Positions 8,829 through 41,725 are shown, numbered from the stretch's first letter. The stretch is 64,000 nt of DNA from an uncultured cyanobacterium (GCA_963793425.1 CAWCAG010000009.1:1007037-1071036); one strand, 5' to 3'. The notes: generated by a model from the letters alone, not told the origin. Numbers and translations are program-made.

Positions 8829-9992
8829 TCAATGATCAGTTGAATCGACGATTTTGTCCTCGACTATGGCGTAGCCCCAGTGGGGATTTTGGTTTATTTG
8901 TTTGGTGACTAAACTTTTGCCGATGGGTGTGTGGTACATTCCTGCTAATGATTCGATGCTTGGGCGAGTTTGTGAGACTGTTTCCTCTTCCTTTGTTTGA
9001 GGCTTTTCTTCCTCTTGTGGTAAAGAAAATTGAGGGGCAATTTGTTCTAACTTAGCAATCACGCTTGCTTTGGTAACTTGATTTTTGGCAGTAAAAGAAG
9101 GGGGTAAATTAGGGGTTGTTACTCCCATTTCTTTGGCTTTAATTGCTTCGTCAGCTAGGCGATCGCACTTACGCAAAAATCCTGCCCAGAGATCCTTCGC
9201 TAAAACGGGGTTTCTTAAGTCTGCCCGCGCCCTAGCTACAGCACTTTCTAAGGGTTCTCCTTTTTGAAGATAATATTGGGTACGTTCTTCTTCTAGGGCA
9301 GGATAAGCAACCCCCGGTTCCACTTCCCACTCTTGTTGTACTTTTTGACTTGTGCCGAAAGGAATACCTTGATTAAATTCTTCCCAATAGGGAGAAATTA
9401 TCCCTTTACTGATGCTATCAATAATTTTAAATACCCAGCCAGAAGGATTGGAAAAACCAAGGTTTTTGGCATAGTTAAATAAAGCTTTTTGAAATGCCTC
9501 AAACTCTTGAGAAGTTTGCCAAGGGCCACTAAATTGGTAATGAGGGGTAACTTGAACAGAAATAGGTTGGCGACGTACAGGAAAGAAGGGATCGCTTTTA
9601 ACTTTTGCTACTAATTTTGTTGGGGTAAAAGCTACGGTATCAGAGTTAGTTAAAAGCCGCTCCAAAACTTGCCAATCAATGATCAACTCCCAAAGTTCAT
9701 CCTCTTGATTGATAAGTTGAAATTGTAGAAGCGATCGCCCCCGAAGTTGGTTTCTAGCCAAGTCTTGCTCAACACTACTCATACCAGTTATTGTCGTCAT
9801 TTCTTCAGTGGTAATTTGCACAGCATTTTGGCCCTTTGGTAGATTAAATTGACGTTGTATAATCTCTCCCAAAAAAACTGCTGTCACCACACCCCCTGTA
9901 GCTTTTGCTAATTGGGGATAATAAATTTGGGGAGCAGTCAAATATTGCCAAAATACCTCTAATTTCACTTTGCCTTGTACCTTAAATAACAA
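8829..9992 (-). CDS. Hypothetical protein (387 aa; start codon uncertain, tracked start is TTG)
   Basis: Long ORF convergent with 7181..8818. No motif recognised. Confidence 0.5.
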   Translation of the reverse strand: MLFKVQGKVKLEVFWQYLTAPQIYYPQLAKATGGVVTAVFLGEIIQRQFNLPKGQNAVQITTEEMTTITGMSSVEQDLARNQLRGRSLLQFQLINQEDELWELIIDWQVLERLLTNSDTVAFTPTKLVAKVKSDPFFPVRRQPISVQVTPHYQFSGPWQTSQEFEAFQKALFNYAKNLGFSNPSGWVFKIIDSISKGIISPYWEEFNQGIPFGTSQKVQQEWEVEPGVAYPALEEERTQYYLQKGEPLESAVARARADLRNPVLAKDLWAGFLRKCDRLADEAIKAKEMGVTTPNLPPSFTAKNQVTKASVIAKLEQIAPQFSLPQEEEKPQTKEEETVSQTRPSIESLAGMYHTPIGKSLVTKQINQNPHWGYAIVEDKIVDSTDH

Positions 9993-10110
9993 CTTTCGTG
10001 GAGAATTTAGCTATAAATCCGGTTGATTTATTTCTTTGGGTGTATACATCAATAATTCCATTAGCTTTATAATAATCAACTTATCAAAAGGATTGATTGA
10101 TCCTCCACCT

Positions 10111-27153: not shown

Positions 27154-27699
27154 ATGAAAACTAAAACATTACTTAAATTTATTCCAGCCACATTAGCTTG
27201 TTGCCTTGTCTTATCACCTCAAACTCTCAAAGCTCAACCCCAAATAGAAATTCCTGCACCACTTCCAGACTCTTCTATTCCAGGAGAATCAGCTTATGCT
27301 CAGTATATGAGATTAGGCTACGCCGCTTCTCAAAGAGGTGACTTCACAGTTGCTGCTAGTTATTTTCGTAGCGCCCTTTACGAACGCCCTCAAGACAGAG
27401 AAGCAACCATTGCTTATTGGAACGCTAAAGATGCTCTGCAAGAGACTCCGAATGAGGGTGAAACTGCCTATGATCGCTACATGGAAATTGCTTATGATGC
27501 AACGGAACAAGAAGATTATCAAACTGCTTTAATTAACTTTCAAAGAGCTTTAGAAGAAAGACCAGGAGATTACTACGCTACTCAAGCGATTCGGAATGTT
27601 AAAACTTACATTGAGCGTGGTCAAGACCCTTCTCTCCAGGAGGTGTTGTTTCTGAACCCACAGTTTATCCAGGAGAGTTACCTTACGACCGCTATATGA
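27154..27699 (+). CDS. Secreted TPR-like repeat protein, first part of a probably frameshifted gene
   Basis: Signal peptide, then two ~55-aa modules (YAQYMRLGYAASQRGDF...; YDRYMEIAYDATEQEDYQTALINFQRALEERPGDYYATQAIRNVKTYIERG). Confidence 0.6.
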   Translation: MKTKTLLKFIPATLACCLVLSPQTLKAQPQIEIPAPLPDSSIPGESAYAQYMRLGYAASQRGDFTVAASYFRSALYERPQDREATIAYWNAKDALQETPNEGETAYDRYMEIAYDATEQEDYQTALINFQRALEERPGDYYATQAIRNVKTYIERGQDPSLQEVLFLNPQFIQESYLTTAI

Positions 27700-28028
27700 G
27701 ACTGGGGTATGCAGCTGAACAGAGGGAAGATTATCAAGCTGCTATTAGACATTTCCGCAGTGCTTTATACGAACGTCCTAAAGACCGGCAGGCAACTACT
27801 GCTTACTGGAATGCAAAAGATGCTTTTAAAAACAAGGGTAGTAATAGTACAGAAGTAGAAAGTGATTATGACCGTTATATGCGTATTGGTTATGATGCAA
27901 CAGAACGAGGAAACTATCAAACCGCGTTGATTAATTTCCGAAGAGCGTTAGAAGTGCGGCCAGGAGATACCTATGCAGCCCAAGCTATTCGTAATGTCAC
28001 AACTTATATTAATCGTGGCGATGGCTAA
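27696..28028 (+). CDS. TPR-like repeat protein, second part (same module pair repeated)
   Basis: YMRLGYAAEQREDYQAAIRHFRSALYERPKDRQATTAYWNAKDA... and YDRYMRIGYDATERGNYQTALINFRRALEVRPGDTYAAQAIRNVTTYINRG. Its frame is open upstream to 27615 and there encodes module-like sequence (PGELPYDRY). Confidence 0.55.
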   Translation: MRLGYAAEQREDYQAAIRHFRSALYERPKDRQATTAYWNAKDAFKNKGSNSTEVESDYDRYMRIGYDATERGNYQTALINFRRALEVRPGDTYAAQAIRNVTTYINRGDG

Positions 28029-28104: not shown

Positions 28105-28752
28105 TTAGTACTTGTCGTTTTTCTGCCCCAAAATTGTGTAAATACCCGCTTTAGAGACTAAAATACCTAATGCAGCTAGACCTAAAAATGTGGAAGGTTC
28201 TGGAACTTCTTGAGGTTTTGGTGGCTTATCTACAGGAGTTGGCTGCTCAAAAGCTACAGTGCCGCCAGCAAAAAAGTTAAAATTTTCATCAAAGTAGGTA
28301 AAGTCTCTTTTGCCATCAAAAGGATTGACGAAAATGTCAAAGCCTAGTATTTGAGGAGGAAGAGGATTGTTGGGAAGCATACCAAAGGTTGTATCTACAA
28401 CATATTGCAACCCAATTAATTCTCCATCTAAAAAGTCCAAGCGAAGACCGTTATCTTCTCCTGTTGCTCCTCCATTGTTGTCAAATTCATCAAAATCATA
28501 ACCCAGACCAAAATTAAAATTGACCTGAATTTTGCCGGAACCATTGAGTGTTTCAGAACCTACTCCAGTCAAAAGACTATCATCAAAGGTGAAATCTCCA
28601 AGGAAAGTTTGATTAGCAAAGGGGCCCTGTTCAGCCGTAACTTTGAAATCAAATGATTTAGTGAGGGCTGATACTGGCTCAACTTCTATAGTTGTACTGA
28701 GTAAAAGAGCAGCACCAATGAGGACAAACTTTTGTGGGAGGGTATTCAGCAT
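28105..28752 (-). CDS. PEP-CTERM sorting-signal protein
   Basis: N-terminal signal peptide. The C-terminal VPEPSTFLGLAALGIL motif is followed by a hydrophobic stretch and a short basic tail. Confidence 0.7.
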   Translation of the reverse strand: MLNTLPQKFVLIGAALLLSTTIEVEPVSALTKSFDFKVTAEQGPFANQTFLGDFTFDDSLLTGVGSETLNGSGKIQVNFNFGLGYDFDEFDNNGGATGEDNGLRLDFLDGELIGLQYVVDTTFGMLPNNPLPPQILGFDIFVNPFDGKRDFTYFDENFNFFAGGTVAFEQPTPVDKPPKPQEVPEPSTFLGLAALGILVSKAGIYTILGQKNDKY

Positions 28753-29323: not shown

Positions 29324-29863
29324 ATGTCTGAACCATTTCTAGGTGAAATTAAAATGATTGCCTTTGACTTTGCACCTAAAGGATTTGCTTTTTGTTACGG
29401 TCAGGTACTAAGTATTAGTCAGAATCAATCCCTCTTCAACCTCATAGGAGATACTTATGGTGGAAATGGCACTAGTACTTTTGCTTTGCCTGATTTGAGG
29501 GGTAGAGTCCCTATTAATGCAGGACAAGGGCCTGGTTTAAGCAATAGAACTTTAGGTCAATCAGGAGGTAGTGAGACTGTTACTTTAACTGAGAGTCAGC
29601 TTCCTGCCCATAATCATGATCTGAATGCTGATCTGAACGCTACTAGTAGTAATGCCAATACTTGTGACCCCGCAGGCAAATTACTAGCAAAATCTAACCG
29701 ACCGACTTATCTTTCCGGAACTGCTAATATTAAACTCGATTCTGATTCTATTAGCGGTTCGACAAGTAGTGTAGGAGGTGGTCAGACCCATAATAATGTG
29801 CAACCTTTTCTTAGTATTAACTTTGTTATTGCTTTAACCGGTATATTTCCTTCAGAGAATTAA
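29324..29863 (+). CDS. Phage-tail-collar domain protein (MdpB-like)
   Basis: MSEPFLGEIKMIAFDFAPKGFAFCYGQ...FALPDLRGRVPI is the typical tail-collar N-terminus. ATG at 29324. Confidence 0.8.
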   Translation: MSEPFLGEIKMIAFDFAPKGFAFCYGQVLSISQNQSLFNLIGDTYGGNGTSTFALPDLRGRVPINAGQGPGLSNRTLGQSGGSETVTLTESQLPAHNHDLNADLNATSSNANTCDPAGKLLAKSNRPTYLSGTANIKLDSDSISGSTSSVGGGQTHNNVQPFLSINFVIALTGIFPSEN

Positions 29864-29956
29864 TAGTTGTTGAGAAAAAGGGCAATGGGTTGATAGAGAC
29901 GAGAAACTTGATATGATTTTTTTCAGCTAGGAGGAGTCCAAGGCTTTCAACATCTC

Positions 29957-32521
29957 TTGAAACCAGCAACCCCTTTATCTGGGAGGAAGAAGGAAATTAG
30001 CACCGATAAGACTACCAAAGGGCAATTTATTACCACCGAACCTCTGGGTAAAAGCGGTGAAGCAGCAGAAAAACAAGTTTGGGAAGCAATCCAAGTTGCT
30101 TTTAAGGAAAGAGAATGTTTGGGCTATTGGCGCTATCCTATTTTCTCCCAGGTAGGGCAGTATCGTCGGGAACCAGATATTCTCATCGCTGATCGTCAGT
30201 TGGGATTGATTATTATTGAAGTTAAAGCCCTGAATATTGAACAAATTGTCCGAATTTCTGGGCATTGTTGGGAATACCAGAACTTTTATACAACCAAAGG
30301 TAATCCTTATCAACAGGCGGAACAGCAACTATATACTCTTTTGGAATATAGCGATCGCGAACCTAGCTTAAACGGGCAGGTAACGGGGCGGGCTTTGGTT
30401 GCGTTGCCTTTAATTAGGGAAAGTCAGTGGCAAGAAAGAGGTTTTCAGCAACTACCCTCTTCTCCTCCTATTTTGCATCAAGATTTGCTTCAACCGGAAA
30501 CTAGGCAGCTACTTCATCAACTCATTGCCAAAATTCCTCCCCTCACTCCTAGCAATCATCTCTCTACTGAACAGTGGCAATTACTTTTAGCAACCTTAGC
30601 TGGCACTCCTCTTTATGGCCAACCTACCCACCGTGTCCTCACCGCTGAGACTTCTAAGGGCAGCATCTTACAACAGATACGCACCAGCAAAGGTATCCTC
30701 GACTGGGAACAGGAACGTATTGCTAAACAAATTCCTCCGGGGCCACAGCGTCTTAGAGGGGTTGCCGGTTCAGGAAAGTCGGTTCTCCTTTGTCAAAAAG
30801 CGGCCCACTTCCATCTAAAATATCCCCACTGGCAAATTGCTTTAGTCTTTTTCTCCCGCAGTCTTTACTACCCAATTGTCGCTCAGGTAGATCGCTGGCT
30901 GCGGTATTTTAGCTGCAACCAAGTGAGTTATGACCCACAAAACTACAACCTGCGAGTTCTCCATGCTTGGGGTAGCCGTCAGCAACCGGGTTTGTATAGT
31001 GTTCTCTGCCGTCAAACTGGCATCCCTCCCCTCGCTGTAACTGATACCCGAAGTCGGCAACCCCAGGAAGCATTAGCGGAAGCTTGCACAGACTTGCTGC
31101 AACAGGCTGCTATTCCCCAACTCTTTGATGCTATCCTCATTGATGAAGGGCAAGATTTACTAGTAGAGCCAGAGTATAAGTATCAGCATAAACAACCTTT
31201 CTATTGGTTAGCTTATCAGGCATTGCACCCAGCAAACCCTGCTCAACCAGAACAGAAAAGATTGATCTGGGCTGATGATGAGGCCCAGAGTTTAACCAGT
31301 CTCCGGGTAGCTAATGCTCAAGAACTGTTTGGGGAAGAATTAGCCCATTTAGTCGCTGGTGAGTATAGTGGTGGTATGGCCAAAACTGCTCTGTTGCGCC
31401 GTTCCTACCGTACACCAGAAAGCATTTTAACCGTAGCCCAGGCCCTGAGTATGGGTTTCCTGAAACCAGGGGGTATGGTGACAGGCATGAGTAGTTTGGC
31501 AGACTGGCAAGCTTTAGGTTATCGCTCTCAGGTGACGAATAGTTCTCTAGGCAGGGGGAAAGTTCTCACCATTGAACGTTTAGAGGATAACTCCCCTCAC
31601 CCTTTGCCTCAACTTTGGACTGGAGAAATTATTGAGTTTCAGATTCACCGCGATCGCAACTCTGAGTTAGCCGCTCTAAGTCAGAATCTATTCTACAATC
31701 TTCGTTATGATGGTTTGCGCCCTAGTCGAGAACTATTGGTAATTATCCTTGGTAGTGGTTTAGAAGCTATAAAGTTAGAAAAAACAGTAGCCCAATTTTT
31801 GATCGCTCAGGGTTTAGATATTTATATTCCCAGCACTAGTACTCATAACCAGCTTCGCTCCGACAAAAGCAACTCTCAACCCAACCAATTTTGGTATGAA
31901 GGGGCAATTACTATCAGCCGCATTCACCGAGCGAAGGGTCAGGAAGCAGATTTAGTTTATCTGGTTGGTTTAGAGCAAATCGCTAAAGAAGAGCATAATC
32001 TTTCCCTACGTAACCAACTATTGGTAGCCTTAACTAGAACCAGAGGTTGGGTTCACCTCAGCGGAATTGGTGACTACCCCTTATACGAAGAGTTGCACAG
32101 TATTATTCACAAAGGTACTAGCTTCAGCTTTCGCCAAGATCGTCCCCCTCAAAGACAAATTAGCCTTACCCCTGCCGGAGAAGTGCTGCAAAGCTATGGC
32201 CAAGGCAGTAGAAACTTTCAGAATGCTCATCTTTTGGGGGCGCAACTACCAGGAGTTAATCTCAGTAAAGCTAATCTAATCGGGGCTAATCTTAAAGGTG
32301 CTAACTTAGAAGGCGCAACATTGGATGGAGCCAAATTAGCGATCGCCAATTTGGCAGAAGCTAATCTCTCTGGGGCTAGTCTACGTAAAGCTCAGTTAAT
32401 GGGGGCTAATCTACAGGAAGCTAAGCTGAGAGATGCTGATTTGCAGTTTGCAGATGTAACAGATGCTTTCCTGGAAGGAGCAGATTTAAAGGGGACGTTG
32501 CTAGAGCAAAATGAGATTTAA
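29957..32521 (+). CDS. NERD nuclease domain + SF1 (UvrD-like) helicase/ATPase + C-terminal pentapeptide-repeat domain fusion protein
   Basis: NERD/PD-(D/E)XK block EPDILIADRQLGLIIIEVK. Walker A GVAGSGKSVLL, Walker B ILIDEGQDL, RRSYRTPE, RIHRAKGQEADLVYL, LTRTRG. The C-terminal ~110 aa are A(N/D)LxG-type pentapeptides (ANLIGANLKGANLEGATLDGAKLAIANLAEANLSGASL). There is no in-frame ATG near the 5' end, so a TTG start is assumed. Confidence 0.8.
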   Translation: MKPATPLSGRKKEISTDKTTKGQFITTEPLGKSGEAAEKQVWEAIQVAFKERECLGYWRYPIFSQVGQYRREPDILIADRQLGLIIIEVKALNIEQIVRISGHCWEYQNFYTTKGNPYQQAEQQLYTLLEYSDREPSLNGQVTGRALVALPLIRESQWQERGFQQLPSSPPILHQDLLQPETRQLLHQLIAKIPPLTPSNHLSTEQWQLLLATLAGTPLYGQPTHRVLTAETSKGSILQQIRTSKGILDWEQERIAKQIPPGPQRLRGVAGSGKSVLLCQKAAHFHLKYPHWQIALVFFSRSLYYPIVAQVDRWLRYFSCNQVSYDPQNYNLRVLHAWGSRQQPGLYSVLCRQTGIPPLAVTDTRSRQPQEALAEACTDLLQQAAIPQLFDAILIDEGQDLLVEPEYKYQHKQPFYWLAYQALHPANPAQPEQKRLIWADDEAQSLTSLRVANAQELFGEELAHLVAGEYSGGMAKTALLRRSYRTPESILTVAQALSMGFLKPGGMVTGMSSLADWQALGYRSQVTNSSLGRGKVLTIERLEDNSPHPLPQLWTGEIIEFQIHRDRNSELAALSQNLFYNLRYDGLRPSRELLVIILGSGLEAIKLEKTVAQFLIAQGLDIYIPSTSTHNQLRSDKSNSQPNQFWYEGAITISRIHRAKGQEADLVYLVGLEQIAKEEHNLSLRNQLLVALTRTRGWVHLSGIGDYPLYEELHSIIHKGTSFSFRQDRPPQRQISLTPAGEVLQSYGQGSRNFQNAHLLGAQLPGVNLSKANLIGANLKGANLEGATLDGAKLAIANLAEANLSGASLRKAQLMGANLQEAKLRDADLQFADVTDAFLEGADLKGTLLEQNEI

Positions 32522-36109: not shown

Positions 36110-38623
36110 ATGGCAAAACAGCTAAACCTGTTAGAAAGTGGTCAGATAGTTCCCACCGCGATACATACAGAAATGGAACGGTCTTATCTTGAATATGCCA
36201 TGAGTGTCATAGTTGGTAGGGCCTTACCTGATGTTCGAGACGGGCTAAAACCTGTCCATCGACGAATTTTGTATGCCATGCACGAACTAGGTTTGACCCC
36301 AGACCGACCTTATCGTAAATGTGCCAGAGTAGTTGGAGATGTTTTAGGTAAATATCATCCCCACGGAGATCAGTCCGTTTATGACGCATTGGTACGGATG
36401 GTACAAGATTTCTCCAGTCGTCATCCCCTGTTATCCGGACATGGGAACTTTGGTTCGGTGGATAATGACCCTCCCGCTGCGATGCGCTATACAGAAACAC
36501 GACTGGCAGAAATTGCTCATCAAGCTCTGTTGAGGGAAATTGGCGAAGCAACTGTTGATTTTACAAGCAACTTTGACAATTCTCAGCAAGAACCAGTAGT
36601 ACTACCAGCTCAGTTACCTATATTATTGCTTAATGGTTGTTCCGGAATAGCAGTAGGTATGGCCACCAATGTACCTCCTCATAACTTGGGAGAGGTGGTA
36701 GATGGCTTAATTGCCTTGATTGATAAGCCTAATTTACCTGATGAAAAACTTTGGCAATTAATTAGGGGACCAGATTTTCCCACTGGGGGAGAGATTATTG
36801 AAACCGCAGTCATTAAGGAAGTTTATCGCCAAGGGAGAGGAAGTATCCCTCTGCGGGGGGTTGCTGCCATTGAAAAGTTGCGTACCGAAGGTAAGCGACG
36901 CAGAATTAAGACAGCGATTGTGGTGACAGAATTACCTTTCCAGGTTAATAAAGCAGGTTGGATTGAAAAAGTTGCTGATTTGGTTAATCAAGGGCGTTTA
37001 GAAGGCATCTCTGATATTCGCGATGAGAGCGATCGCGATGGTATGCGGGTGGTGATTGAATTAAAACGTGATACTAATGCTCAACAAATTCTCCGTCAAC
37101 TCTACAAACAAACAGCCCTACAAAATAACTTTGGGGCCATTATGCTGGCGTTGGTGGATAACAAGCCCTGTCAGCTCTCTTTGAGGGAATTATTAGAAAA
37201 GTTCCTTAGCTTCCGAGAACAAACCCTTACTCGGCTTTATAGATACGAATTAGAGCAGAATCAAAGAAGAATTCATCTGGTTGAAGGGTTGTTAGCGGCA
37301 CTCAAAAACTTAGATCGAGTTATTGAGATTTTACGCAATGCCCCCGATGGCAGCACAGCTAAAGTGACATTACAAGAAGAATTAGCAATTAGTGAACCCC
37401 AAGCCGATTCTATTTTAGCTATGCCGATGCGCCGCTTGACGGGGTTAGAAAGGCAGAAGTTACAGACAGAGTATGAGGAATTACAAGAAAAGATTGCTGA
37501 GTTAAACAAATTATTAGGCGATCGCGGGGAGTTCTTAAAAGCCCTGAAAAAAGAGTTACGTTCTTTGAAGCGTAAATATGGTAATCCTCGCCGTACTAAA
37601 ATTCTTTCAGCGGAGGAGGTACGAAAAGCTGCCGCTACAGCGAAGAAAGGGCAAAAAAGCAAAAAGTCCCCTCAGAAATCTAGTGTTGCACCAGTTTTGT
37701 CAGCAACAGAAGCTTTACCCCCCAAAGATGCAGTAATTGAGGTTACTCGCCAAGGATATGTTCATTGGCAAACCCCCTCCGGAGGGAGAAAAGCTTCAAC
37801 TAGCAATCGGGATTTTGTTGTCAATACTTTAGCTGTTAAGCAACAAGAGCAATTGGTGGTACTAACAGCGAGTGGCAAGGCATATCCGGTTGCCCTCACA
37901 GAAATTCCCCAAGTAGGAAATATTAAAAAAACTCGTCTTTTAAGCTTATTACCAAAATCTGTCCAGAAGCCGGAAGAAAGGGTTGTAGGGCAATTTTTCT
38001 TGCCCCAGGACAAAAAACAAAAACCTCAAGATTTAGTCTTACTTACCAAAGAAGGGCGCATTAAACGCTTGGCAATCTCAGAGTTGAAAGATTTAAGTAA
38101 CCGAGGACTACAAGTAATTAAACTCAAAGACAAAGACAGCTTGGATTATGCTTGTTTGGCACAAGAAGGGCAACAAATGGCGATCGCCACTACAGGAGGG
38201 CGCATTTTACGTTTTGAGGTGAATGATGAACAATTGGCAATTATGGGACGTAATGCCCAAGGCAATCAGGCTTTAAGGTTACGTTACAACGAGAATTTGG
38301 TTAGTGGCGTTGTTGTTAATGAAAATGATAGTCTTTTGCTAGTGTCAGGATTTGGTTATGCTAAGCGATTGGCAGTTAAATCTTTACGTTTGGCTAATCG
38401 AGGGGATATTGGTACTCAAGCTTTACAGTTTGCTGAGTCAGACGATTCCTTAGTAGGATTAATTTTAGCTCCGAAGCAAGCTAGTTTTACTCTTTTAACA
38501 GCGACGGATAAAGTAATTAGTTTACCGATTAAGCCTATTAAAAATTTGGGCAAGGATGGTACGGGGAATCATCTCTCAAAACTAAAAGCTAGAGAAAGAG
38601 TGAAAGAGATTTGGTTACAGTAA
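36110..38623 (+). CDS. Type IIA topoisomerase subunit A (GyrA/ParC family; GyrA-box not evident)
   Basis: Catalytic-tyrosine block [10 protein letters not shown]; N-terminal winged-helix and tower regions; C-terminal beta-pinwheel-like repeats. The expected QRRGGKG GyrA-box position reads [11 protein letters not shown] lysine-rich insert [20 protein letters not shown] is present. Confidence 0.85.
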
Positions 38624-38728: not shown

Positions 38729-41725
38729 TTAGGGTTCTGGTCCTAAAAGGGTAGGATTTTCAACTTCGCGAATAATTGTTTCTGGAGAAGCATTCTCTGC
38801 TTGTTCGGGGTTGAAAAGTACTTCAAGGGCTTTCTCTAAAGTTTCTGCCATAGCAATGCGGTTTTCATAAACAACAATTACCCTAGCTAAAATCGGTAAA
38901 CTATTCTCTTCTGCTTCTAAATAAAGAGGCTCTACATAAATTAAAGATTGTTCAATGGGAATCATCAATAAGTTTCCCTGAATAGCGTTAGAGCCTTGGT
39001 TATCCCAAAGGGAAATTTGTTGAGAAATAACTGGATCTTGGTTAATTAGGGCTTCAATTTGTTCTGGTCCGTAGATCAGTCTTTGTTTAGGAAATTCATA
39101 GAGTAGGAGTTTACCATAATTATCACCATCAGAACGTGCCGCTAGCCAAGCAACTAAGTTATTACGACTAGTGGGAGTGTAGGGGTGGAGGAGAATAAAT
39201 TCTTCTGAGGCTAACTCTGGTAGTTTAACAATTAAGTAGTAAGGTTCTACTGGTTGAGATTCTGCCCCGTAAATCTCTTTGGGAATTTGCCATTGATCTT
39301 CCCGGTTATAAAAGACTTGGAAGTCTGTCATGTGGTAGGTTAGCAACTGTTCCGATTGGGTGCTAAATAAGTCTAGGGGATAGCGAATATGGCTGAAGAG
39401 AGTTTCTGGCATCTCTTCTAAGGGTTTGAAGAGTTGAGGGAAAATTTTAGCCCAGGTTTGGATGATGGGATCATCCTTATCGACAACATAAAAATCGACA
39501 TCGCCGTTGTAGGCATCCACAACAATTTTGACTGAGTTACGGATGTAATTAAATTTGTTCTTGCCTGGGTCAGAATAAGGATAACGATTGCTGGTGGTGT
39601 AGGCATCAATGATCCAATAGAGGTAGTTTTCTTGGTCAGTTTCCCCAATTTCTGGCACATTGGCATTAACTAAATAGGGGTCATGATCAAAACGTAAAAA
39701 AGGGGCGATCGCTTGGCAACGAGTTTTGATATCCCGGCGTAGGAGAAGTTTGGTTTCTGGTGTGAAGTTTTCTGTGAAAAGCATTTGCCAATCTTTAAGA
39801 TAGGCTGCAAAAAAGATACGCTGCCAGTAGTTGCCAATGTCAATACCCCCTCTACCGTCGTAGGTGTTGTAGACGTTATCATCCCCGCTGGGATAGTCTA
39901 ATTCCTCAATTCTGGTGGAGGTGAGGACGTAGTTATCTGTGAGTTGCCCGTAGTAAATGCGGGGTTTGCCAATGGGGATACTATCTCTGATATAAGGATC
40001 GGAGGTACGTAATGTCCCTTGTTCACTTTCCTCTGATCCTGTACCAATGTCCTTAACAAAATAAAAAGGTAGTCCCCCTTCTCCGACTTTGTTAACAGGA
40101 GAGAGAGTAAAACCATAACCGTGGGTATAAACTAGATGTTTGTTGACCCAAGTTTGGGCTTCTTGGGGTACAGACTTATAGTCTAGTTCCCTGGGGGCAA
40201 TGATTACTTGCTGTCTGAGAGTATCAGGGATTGTACTATCTTCTTCTTCGCCAACTTTAAGGGTATAACGGTCAATATCAGCATCAGGAAAGCGGTAGTA
40301 GAGGCGAATTTGCTGTAGTTGGCGATTCGTTTGTAATAGAGGGCGAGTGTCCCAAAGACGAATATCCCTAACGGTTAAACTGTTTTCTGTAATATCTTTA
40401 GCATTAAGCCCTGCTTGGGGGTTAAATTGTATTGCTTCAATTGTGTCTAAACCAAAGGCTTTTCTGGTATTAGTAATACTTCTTTGAATATAAAGTTCTT
40501 CCCTAGCTAATTCGTTAGGTAATACTTCCAAATTCTGTACTATTGCTGGTAATAATTTGGCGAAAAGAACAAAAGCAATTAAGTATGAAGCAAGGACACC
40601 CATAGCCGGGTAAAGTGAAGGAGAAAGAGAATATTTAGCTAAACTCCGCCACAAAAGCCAAAAGGCAATTCCACCTGCCACTACAGCGAGGCCTGTTTCT
40701 ACAGGTAACTGTATTTTAACATCGGTATAGCTAGCTCCATAAGCTACTCCCCGTAAAGAGTACAGCAATTCATAGCGCTTAAGCCAATGGTTAAAGGCTT
40801 CGGTAAACATCATCAAACTTCCTAGCCCCTGAAGATGATGCAATTGAGGTGAGGAAAAGCCGGGGAATTTACCTTGAGAAAGGCTATTTCCAGATACTAA
40901 ATAGAGTAAACAACAAGCAATAAAGGTATAGCCAAATAGACCGCTTAGCCAAAAATCCAATAATTTCCAGATCGGAAATTTAAAGATATAGAAACTCAGA
41001 TCATTTTGGAAGAGAGGATCTAGTTCATTAAAATTCGTGGCCGCGAAGTATTGGAGAAACCTTGTCCAGTTGCCAGCAATGATGGTACTAAAAGTTAAAC
41101 TTAGTCCCACGGCGATCGCCATGAGAATAAATTCAGTATTAATGAATAAAATAGTTGCTATGGCAATCAATATCGCAATTTGCCAGATAATCGCATTTTT
41201 AGCTAAGATTGCATTTGCTAATTCAAGTATTTCTAACCTCAAGGAAAAAGGCAGAGGTGGAGCAACATTTAAGACACTCAAGCCAGGTTGCCAAAACTTG
41301 GCAACTATTTGGCTATAGTGCAGAACAATCAATCCAACCAGTAAGTTTAAGCTAATTAGAAGTGGTAGTAATATTTTCAGGTTAAAGGCAGTTTTAGTCG
41401 CCGCTTTTTCAGTTGCCTCCCTAGGCAAAGAGTTAATTGTTAAATATTTTCTTTCTTGTTCTTCTGGCTGAGGATAGCGAAATTTTCTAGCTAGAAAGAT
41501 ATTAAGAAAGAGAAACACTCCTGAAACCAAGAAAGTAAGGAGCCAAAGTTGTAATTTATTAGTTAATCCTTTGACAAAAACTTCTAGATAACCAATTTCT
41601 TGAAACCAAAAGGATTCTGCTTTCAAAGTAGCAATAATATCCAAAGCAAAGCCTAGTCCGATTAGAAGAACTAGCAAGGTTAATATCTTGTGGTGACGAG
41701 GAAAGTTGGCTAAGCTTTTTAGCAT
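38729..41725 (-). CDS. UPF0182-family large membrane protein
   Basis: 998 aa, with an N-terminal polytopic region followed by a large soluble domain. Blocks such as YYRFPDADIDRY and VYTHGYG fit my memory of the family. Confidence 0.65.
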   Translation of the reverse strand: MLKSLANFPRHHKILTLLVLLIGLGFALDIIATLKAESFWFQEIGYLEVFVKGLTNKLQLWLLTFLVSGVFLFLNIFLARKFRYPQPEEQERKYLTINSLPREATEKAATKTAFNLKILLPLLISLNLLVGLIVLHYSQIVAKFWQPGLSVLNVAPPLPFSLRLEILELANAILAKNAIIWQIAILIAIATILFINTEFILMAIAVGLSLTFSTIIAGNWTRFLQYFAATNFNELDPLFQNDLSFYIFKFPIWKLLDFWLSGLFGYTFIACCLLYLVSGNSLSQGKFPGFSSPQLHHLQGLGSLMMFTEAFNHWLKRYELLYSLRGVAYGASYTDVKIQLPVETGLAVVAGGIAFWLLWRSLAKYSLSPSLYPAMGVLASYLIAFVLFAKLLPAIVQNLEVLPNELAREELYIQRSITNTRKAFGLDTIEAIQFNPQAGLNAKDITENSLTVRDIRLWDTRPLLQTNRQLQQIRLYYRFPDADIDRYTLKVGEEEDSTIPDTLRQQVIIAPRELDYKSVPQEAQTWVNKHLVYTHGYGFTLSPVNKVGEGGLPFYFVKDIGTGSEESEQGTLRTSDPYIRDSIPIGKPRIYYGQLTDNYVLTSTRIEELDYPSGDDNVYNTYDGRGGIDIGNYWQRIFFAAYLKDWQMLFTENFTPETKLLLRRDIKTRCQAIAPFLRFDHDPYLVNANVPEIGETDQENYLYWIIDAYTTSNRYPYSDPGKNKFNYIRNSVKIVVDAYNGDVDFYVVDKDDPIIQTWAKIFPQLFKPLEEMPETLFSHIRYPLDLFSTQSEQLLTYHMTDFQVFYNREDQWQIPKEIYGAESQPVEPYYLIVKLPELASEEFILLHPYTPTSRNNLVAWLAARSDGDNYGKLLLYEFPKQRLIYGPEQIEALINQDPVISQQISLWDNQGSNAIQGNLLMIPIEQSLIYVEPLYLEAEENSLPILARVIVVYENRIAMAETLEKALEVLFNPEQAENASPETIIREVENPTLLGPEP

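Follow-up and report, generated by a model that had tools for sequence, protein, structure and literature searches.

Introduction

Enzymes that carry a nuclease and a superfamily 1 (SF1) or superfamily 2 motor in a single chain are known from Dna2, Nhi, DdmD and SLFN11. In cyanobacteria, on the other hand, dozens of pentapeptide-repeat proteins are encoded, and what they do has been obscure since 1998; a partner is known for few proteins of this kind, gyrase for Qnr and MfpA and the HetR/PatS pathway for HetL, and published structures of MfpA and Qnr establish that a C-terminal helix dimerizes them into a rod of DNA length. Conflict proteins with pentapeptide repeats are known as well, among them a Hailong-like channel and fusions to Orc/Cdc6. 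Here we describe a gene at positions 29957-32521 (+) of a 64,000-nucleotide stretch of DNA from an uncultured cyanobacterium (GCA_963793425.1 CAWCAG010000009.1:1007037-1071036, referred to as the window) in which a NERD nuclease, an SF1 motor and a C-terminal pentapeptide-repeat tail are fused. The only experimentally validated relative that we have found is the helicase of Helicase+DUF2290 (Rst_HelicaseDUF2290), a system that blocks phage T7 (Rousset et al. 2022, PMC9122126).

The window protein shares with Nhi, Dna2, DdmD and SLFN11 the logic of a nuclease and a motor in one chain, and Dna2 and SLFN11 are among its top fold matches, although such a resemblance is common to SF1 proteins in general (TM-scores no higher than 0.38) and none of the four has a pentapeptide-repeat domain. 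Its SF1 motor core is homologous to that of the Helicase+DUF2290 helicase, from which it differs in having NERD at the N terminus, a pentapeptide tail and no DUF2290 neighbor. It is most likely a stand-alone, predicted catalytically competent nuclease-helicase. The explanation that we favor, with a probability of roughly 0.4, is that it is an active stand-alone nuclease-helicase of a conflict-type family in which a captured solenoid would serve as a docking or regulatory platform.

Domain Architecture and Active Sites

One unbroken open reading frame (ORF) spans 29957-32521, giving 854 amino acids (aa) from a TTG, stop codon included in the coordinates, and is built from the following parts, with residues numbered in the 854-aa ORF.

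30023-30436, +, NERD / PD-(D/E)xK nuclease domain, residues 23-160 (Pfam, conservation, AlphaFold2)
30176-30178, 30218-30220 and 30224-30226, +, nuclease catalytic residues D74, E88 and K90 (64-ortholog alignment)
30437-30721, +, helical linker from nuclease to motor, residues 161-255 (AlphaFold2 helices; the body's least conserved part)
30722-32161, +, SF1 helicase/ATPase core, residues 256-735 (Pfam, PADLOC, motifs, Foldseek), closed by a C-terminal strand-helix-strand element at whose end tail-less relatives stop
30758-30781, +, Walker A of the SF1 core
31142-31156, +, motif II, DEGQD
31265-31291, +, motif III
31400-31420, +, motif IV
31919-31963, +, motif V
32030-32047, +, motif VI
32162-32518, +, tail of linker, N-cap helix (residues 740-754, AGEVLQSYGQGSRNF) and about 20 pentapeptide repeats (residues 755-854) (Pfam, PDB matches, AlphaFold2)

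A preliminary description of this gene, made from the sequence alone, had recognized a NERD module, a UvrD-like ATPase core and a pentapeptide-repeat domain in the 854-aa ORF, and all three parts are confirmed by scores above the Pfam curated (gathering) cut-offs that we have used throughout: 29.1 bits against 22.1 for NERD (PF08378, residues 33-132), 34.4 against 27.4 for UvrD_C_2 (PF13538, residues 652-701) and 80.5 against 20.2 for Pentapeptide (PF00805, residues 753-854). Every motif quoted at the time is found, EPDILI at 72-77, IIIEVK at 85-90, GVAGSGKS at 268-275, ILIDEGQDL at 393-401, RSYRTPE at 482-488, RIHRAKGQEADLVYL at 655-669 and LTRTRG at 692-697, with cap and repeats at 740-854. 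The core is an SF1 motor with a C-terminal RecA domain of the UvrD_C_2 type, for which the term UvrD-like is too specific. The UvrD-helicase N-terminal profile PF00580 gives zero matches and UvrD_C scores 18.2 bits, under its cut-off of 25.6.

A Foldseek comparison of the predicted structure with the PDB returns SF1 helicases only and is likewise split, with a probability of 1.00 to RecD, Upf1, Dna2, Rep, UvrD and PcrA, the best E-values, all to SF1B members, for RecD, SLFN11, Dna2 and Upf1, and the best target-normalized TM-scores (0.41-0.46) for UvrD, Rep and PcrA, which belong to SF1A. Searches of the PDB by single sequence and by family profile yielded no helicase or nuclease chain, their matches being confined to the tail.

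The active sites are intact. Across 64 aligned orthologs D74, E88 and K90, Walker A (G268-K274) and motif II (D396-D400) are invariant, and motifs III-VI (DEAQS 441-445, YRxP 484-487, RIHRAKGxEA 655-664, TR 693-694) are invariant or nearly so. Mean column conservation is 0.73-0.81 in the catalytic domains as against 0.59 in the linker of residues 161-255. The AlphaFold2 model computed from the same alignment has a mean predicted local distance difference test score (pLDDT) of 86.3 and a predicted TM-score of 0.86, and its N-terminal domain runs helix-strands-helix-strand as in a restriction-endonuclease fold, with D74, E88 and K90 on the expected strands.

The Pentapeptide-Repeat Tail

The tail, about 115 aa in all, consists of a short conserved linker, a cap and about five coils of a quadrilateral β-helix, and the central L of its repeats is invariant. 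In the AlphaFold2 model a short strand recurs each five residues at a pLDDT of 86-97, while the junction with the enzyme, where R733 is invariant across the 64 orthologs, is modeled at 82-86; no C-terminal helix is present in the modeled tail. The tail is under purifying selection. Its cap and proximal three coils are conserved (0.76) on par with the catalytic domains, the distal coils less so (0.59), and at the exposed positions of the first three coils conservation averages 0.75 and 0.79 on two adjacent faces versus 0.53 and 0.56 on the others, these averages being arithmetic on the conservation table with four repeats per coil assumed. Two well-conserved adjacent faces point to a specific surface under conservation, to which I775/G776, D790/K793 and R810/K811/Q813 belong. 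Among 116 orthologs the tail varies from 98 to 160 aa in length and from -8 to +7 in net charge (median -2; -4 in the window protein), with slightly basic proximal coils (median +1) and acidic distal coils (median -4 over 22-84 aa).

The best sequence matches of the tail are the proteins Alr5209, Np275/Np276, All3740 and HetL, and the resemblance extends to their N-cap, ELLxxYxxGxRNF. Matches in the PDB comprise designs based on Np275/276, All3740 and Alr5209; of the equivalog profiles Alr5209 (92 bits) and HetL (61 bits) score highest. Unlike the tail, these proteins are free-standing, and their functions are mostly obscure; the Alr5209 score falls under the cut-off of 125, so that the tail is no equivalog of that protein. 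Small cyanobacterial pentapeptide-repeat proteins are thus the likely source of the captured tail on sequence similarity, and because the N-cap is complete and the best matches are to small free-standing cyanobacterial proteins it would appear that a whole small gene was captured.

Tailed Orthologs and Tail-less Relatives

Two homology searches with tailed queries, the window protein and a divergent member from Cyanobacterium aponinum, found 1171 proteins at E<=1e-5 and 862 at E<=1e-20, respectively, and all of the 120 matches listed in each combine PF13538 with PF00805 at full length or nearly so, a few fragments included. The architecture is therefore not rare, contrary to the impression given by the preliminary description, to which no described system with the three parts fused was known; literature searches on NERD with pentapeptide, pentapeptide with anti-phage and NERD-helicase defense likewise found no account of it, the one paper that mentions both NERD and pentapeptide repeats being about something else, and a match on 2-nonanone-resistance genes of Synechococcus concerns unrelated proteins. 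All named sources among the matches listed are cyanobacteria, including Spirulina, Lusitaniella, Gloeothece, Hydrococcus, Xenococcaceae, Pleurocapsa PCC 7319, Crocosphaera subtropica ATCC 51142, Rippkaea PCC 8801, Gloeocapsa PCC 73106, Geminocystis, Coleofasciculus, Symploca, Microcoleus, Argonema and others; Synechocystis, Microcystis, Nostocales and picocyanobacteria are absent from the matches listed in either search. A single-sequence scan of GTDB genomes gave at least two true orthologs, and a protein identical at 100% to the window protein (P0001) is present in NCBI from a Spirulinaceae metagenome-assembled genome. The automatic names of the tailed proteins are 'pentapeptide repeat-containing protein', 'rfrA family' and 'superfamily I DNA and RNA helicase'. 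At least seven named Cyanobacterium strains, mostly C. aponinum, fall in one 90%-identity cluster, and the tailed clade as a whole makes up about four full-length 50%-identity clusters, from which it seems that this clade evolves slowly.

The enzyme body is far more widespread than the tail. An exhaustive search with residues 1-735 returned 1454 representatives (50% identity) at E<=0.001, 382 of them at E<=1e-30; pentapeptide repeats are present in only about seven of the best 150, the rest being of 700-750 aa and ending just past a 'GIGxYPxYxE...TFxFxF' element, exactly where the tail begins. The tail-less proteins, named 'nuclease-related domain-containing DEAD/DEAH box helicase' by PGAP and uncharacterized, match the NERD and SF1 body of the window protein end to end at 40-47% identity, 61-62% between tailed and tail-less paralogs of one genome. 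In a tree rooted on the Helicase+DUF2290 helicase of E. coli the 13 tailed proteins sampled form one clade with no tail-less member within it, and since the outgroups are tail-less the parsimonious reading of the tree is a single gain of the tail, on a much larger family of tail-less proteins of about 725 aa.

Hosts of the tail-less family include cyanobacteria, Bacillus, Deinococcus and haloarchaea. Unlike the tailed gene, its members are often plasmid-borne or found by restriction-modification (R-M), Cas3 or insertion sequence (IS) genes: a Deinococcus plasmid copy adjoins hsdR, Cas3, a WYL-domain gene and an XPB/Bax1-like pair, a Leptolyngbya boryana plasmid copy adjoins IS21, IS4, NB-ARC and PD-(D/E)XK nuclease genes, a Nostoc HK-01 plasmid copy adjoins a large helicase gene, and some copies are split by IS4 or IS5. 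Because the plasmid database is biased by construction a further search was made with a chromosomal tail-less member, and it showed Nostocales, Oscillatoriales and Coleofasciculales to be rich in tail-less proteins of about 725 aa. Cross-phylum transfer is indicated by Bacillus sequences, which share 48-60% identity with the tail-less proteins of cyanobacteria and nest among them. Both forms occur together in Microcoleus sp. FACHB-53 (GCA_014695895.1) with 62% core identity, the tail-less copy (L029) beside a DDE transposase, a WCX-domain gene and type I R-M genes hsdS/M/R and the tailed copy (L019) beside ahcY-exoD-dedA. Other end modules in the family are a C-terminal Peptidase_S24, a C-terminal MIT_C/PLD-like module, an N-terminal DUF4145 and a second NERD. 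The NERD-SF1 family shows the hallmarks of biological-conflict genes.

Several further observations concern individual members. Cyanobacterium UBA8803 has both forms (P0076 and P0402), and representatives with variant end modules, including a fusion to a second UvrD-type helicase, are P0151, P0182, P0127, P0174 and P0229. The protein encoded on the plasmid of Nostoc sp. HK-01 (L012, 7995-10196) has 733 aa and lacks repeats. This and other tail-less plasmid copies (plasmid matches H9, H14, H15) are named 'pentapeptide repeat protein' or 'rfrA', apparently by transfer of the name from tailed relatives. In Chondrocystis the plasmid copy (L028, 5971-8375) is broken into two coding sequences.

Relation to Known Defense Systems

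The strongest match of the window protein to a defense profile is to PADLOC PDLC03002, 'Helicase', with 232 bits (E=3.6e-69) over residues 225-726. The match covers profile positions 168-643 of 707 and leaves the N-terminal 167 positions of the profile unmatched. In comparison, a protein from an IncI plasmid of E. coli reaches 988 bits over positions 2-704, and the gene after it matches the PADLOC DUF2290 models; the full-length match together with this neighbor identifies PDLC03002 as the helicase of the Helicase+DUF2290 system, and the same gene pair is carried by a Lactococcus plasmid. Nine of the tailed loci have Pfam calls for their genes, and in none of these nine is a DUF2290 gene present; L018 is without a downstream flank, and L004 and L005 were compared only to the window's genes. 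With a match confined to the motor core and with no DUF2290 neighbor the window protein is a homolog of the Helicase+DUF2290 helicase and not a member of that system. The PADLOC candidate 'NERD+UvrD' matches at 1e-14.

The suggestion that the enzyme is of the Nhi-like type did not hold up, as PADLOC has no Nhi model matching at E<=1 and the validated relative is instead the Helicase+DUF2290 helicase. Gabija GajB was also considered and rejected, with at most 23 bits over about 55 residues around motifs V/VI and no OLD/TOPRIM neighbor in the window.

Proposed Mechanism and Alternative Explanations

We infer substrate, motor-nuclease coupling, tail partner and physiological role as follows. The SF1 ATPase motor would translocate on DNA and feed it to the N-terminal NERD nuclease, by analogy with Dna2, Nhi and DdmD, and a motor that presents DNA to a nuclease in this way would thereby process or degrade DNA ends, gaps or branched intermediates. 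One cyanobacterial paralog would have captured a complete small pentapeptide-repeat protein, cap helix and coils, at its C terminus, once. The tail would then be a rigid docking platform whose two conserved faces hold a conserved partner, either the protein's own motor, for gating, or a cellular protein, with the variable acidic distal coils tuning the interaction between tail and partner; it would decide when or where the nuclease-helicase acts and would not be a DNA mimic of the Qnr type. The enzyme would most likely keep watch for DNA that is foreign or aberrant, in an immunity-like role that has become fixed in the chromosome.

A number of results weigh against this explanation, and they speak for the main alternative, which is somewhat less probable, that of a housekeeping enzyme of repair, recombination or replication restart (in end resection, for example) whose tail would dock on gyrase, topoisomerase, SSB or RecA. 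In 12 tailed loci from as many genomes most of the neighbors have metabolic or housekeeping functions and none is a conserved operon partner, and the recurrent defense flanks of a defense island are not seen in this small sample; defense-type pairs within 10 kb are confined to two or three of the loci, with GmrSD_N and AAA_15 with DUF4276 (PARIS-like) at 12774-16520 of L011 and AAA_15/21 with DUF3226 at 2548-4344 of L025, from Crocosphaera subtropica ATCC 51142. The gene order ahcY-(exoD)-dedA/VTT-helicase is kept in four loci from three orders, the helicase has diverged (86/72/64% identity) to a similar extent as its dedA neighbor (84/74/69%), and in the ortholog tree Coleofasciculus, Symploca, Argonema, Hydrococcus and Spirulina group by genus, so that the tree tracks taxonomy. 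Given the synteny, the dedA-like divergence and the genus-wise tree, the tailed gene is a long-term, vertically inherited chromosomal resident. No phage homologs were found in 50,697 phage genomes, with matches in IMG/VR being only 20-22% identical; the conserved surface of the tail is unlike what is expected for an arms-race sensor; and the NERD-SF1 family is known from sequences and models alone. The antiphage role proposed in the preliminary description is a claim that the evidence gathered does not support, and the core-genome contexts unrelated to defense that were named there as speaking against it are largely what is found for the tailed orthologs, although not for the tail-less relatives. 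A housekeeping role would also be consistent with the tight Cyanobacterium cluster, the slow evolution of the tailed clade, the conserved surface of its tail and the gyrA gene that lies 3.6 kb downstream in the window. Yet the proximity to gyrA is not kept in the other loci compared, the gap in the cyanobacterial distribution described above indicates that the gene is not universal, and the nearest validated relative is a defense helicase. Moreover, tail-less paralogs track taxonomy while adjoining R-M and IS genes. As the tail-less subfamily of cyanobacteria follows taxonomy too, vertical inheritance alone does not separate housekeeping from defense, and for the same reason the notion that the enzyme was domesticated when the tail was gained was reduced in weight.

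The preliminary description had seen in the tail a mimic of B-DNA of the Qnr/MfpA type, which would either fill the helicase's own DNA groove in autoinhibition or recruit or decoy a DNA-binding enzyme, and we consider this unlikely. The tail does share the right-handed quadrilateral β-helix fold with MfpA and Qnr, its acidic distal coils, about 50 aa long, have a net charge of -4 in the median, and a short, confidently modeled linker could hold the solenoid against the motor. Profile similarity to Qnr, MfpA, AlbG and McbG is however weak: the MfpA and Qnr equivalog models give 24-30 bits against cut-offs of 240-460 (MfpA 29.9 against 360, Qnr 23.5 against 240, QnrA 26.4 against 450), so that the tail is placed far outside that group, and the family profile gives 113-149 bits to Np275/276 and All3740 in the PDB and 38-52 bits to MfpA and QnrB1. 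Those proteins act in trans on gyrase, whereas the tail is short, monomeric, near-neutral and fused in cis to a DNA enzyme; the strongly electronegative, dimerized rod of DNA length is not what its net charge, slightly basic conserved proximal coils, five or so coils, missing C-terminal helix and variable length describe. Because of the near-neutral charge and the two conserved faces a role of the tail in docking or regulation is more likely than DNA mimicry. A cis-acting gate or decoy, in which a DNA-like solenoid held on the motor by the conserved faces would keep the enzyme off the host chromosome until a phage or damage-induced DNA-binding protein grabs the acidic distal coils, is a long shot, less probable still than the DNA mimic. 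That a helicase gene and a small pentapeptide-repeat gene were read as one, or that the protein is an inactive relic, is hardly credible. The complete N-cap, like that of free-standing proteins, does indicate that the tail was once a separate gene, but all orthologs listed, which come from independent genomes and assemblies, complete genomes included, have this ORF without a break, the junction is kept, and all catalytic motifs are invariant; the ortholog set refutes this reading.

Translation Start and Neighboring Genes

The following elements precede the conserved N terminus.

29890-29917, +, promoter-like TTGATA-16 nt-TATGAT with TG before the -10 element (10/12 consensus matches), in the 93-nucleotide (nt) gap
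29981-29986, +, GGGAGG Shine-Dalgarno-like element, shared with the 86%-identical locus L004
29996-29998, +, candidate start ATT, codon 14 of the listed ORF, with an aligned ATT in L004

The lack of an in-frame ATG near the 5' end, remarked on in the preliminary description, is borne out, there being none ahead of codon 474. In L004 in-frame TAA and TAG stand where the window has TTG, there is no ATG, GTG or TTG start before the conserved N terminus, and the aligned ATT is the sole start-like codon ahead of the conserved GQFI(T/A)TEP; in both loci the ATT sits about 9 nt after GGGAGG (L004 about 9985-10010). Since the stops of L004 exclude TTG, and since ATT and GGGAGG are aligned, a conserved AUU start is the simplest reading of the two sequences, and the true start is probably this ATT, giving about 841 aa. 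Gene callers have chosen TTG in the window (854 aa) and in L004 a far-downstream ATG (792 aa, P0002) that truncates the NERD domain; in at least two genomes the start seems to have been annotated wrongly.

Upstream, the Collar-domain gene ends at 29863 and the ORF follows after the 93-nt gap, as originally noted. The promoter-like site in this gap is only suggestive, promoter-like sites being no commoner in the region than in shuffled sequences, and would be consistent with a separately transcribed helicase gene. The next gene downstream is a convergent DUF6916 gene. Five genes upstream of the helicase are syntenic between the window and L004 at 78-97.5% identity.

A DedA/VTT gene, absent from the window, lies directly upstream of the helicase and is co-directional with it in L011 (8739-9359), L018 (7389-7994), L019 (7331-7945) and L020 (6657-8011). 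The two genes are 6 nt apart in Hydrococcus and overlap in Argonema; ahcY and exoD often precede. The tailed locus L009 has toxin-antitoxin and IS genes. The window's gyrA gene (DNA_topoisoIV and DNA_gyraseA_C, 837 aa) is at 36110-38623 (+), and its linkage to the helicase, considered as a Qnr-like clue, was rejected as it is absent in L004, L005 and L009-L011. A gene for a UPF0182 membrane protein is found 6-8 kb downstream of the helicase both in the window (38729-41725, -) and in Lusitaniella (L010, 20868-22505), the two being 48% identical, and may be a remnant of older synteny. Also in the window, two adjacent TPR-like ORFs of 181 and 110 aa at 27154-28028 (+) are mutual paralogs, cross-match at 62-69% identity to a relative's locus in tblastn and look like a local tandem duplication, and at 28105-28752 (-) a 215-aa protein with no Pfam match has a C-terminal segment, ...VPEPSTFLGLAALGILV..., that resembles a PEP-CTERM sorting signal.

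Significance

The lineage-specific tail on NERD-SF1 nuclease-helicases is new; the kind of enzyme is known, widespread and already in databases under uninformative names. The names 'pentapeptide repeat-containing protein' and 'rfrA family' hide its enzymatic nature and have been mis-transferred to tail-less plasmid copies. Here a repeat domain is fused to a DNA enzyme of assayable predicted activity, and a comparison of the protein with and without its tail would test the regulation of DNA enzymes by such solenoids. Tailed and tail-less paralogs in one genome, with contrasting neighborhoods, and the alternative C-terminal modules of the family (S24 peptidase, PLD-like, DUF4145) could reveal how a conflict-type nuclease-helicase is re-targeted. 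Should the tail prove to be a gate or decoy of this kind, it would be the first demonstrated case of a pentapeptide-repeat domain that regulates a DNA motor in cis, and would offer a way into the functions of the dozens of orphan proteins with such repeats in cyanobacteria.

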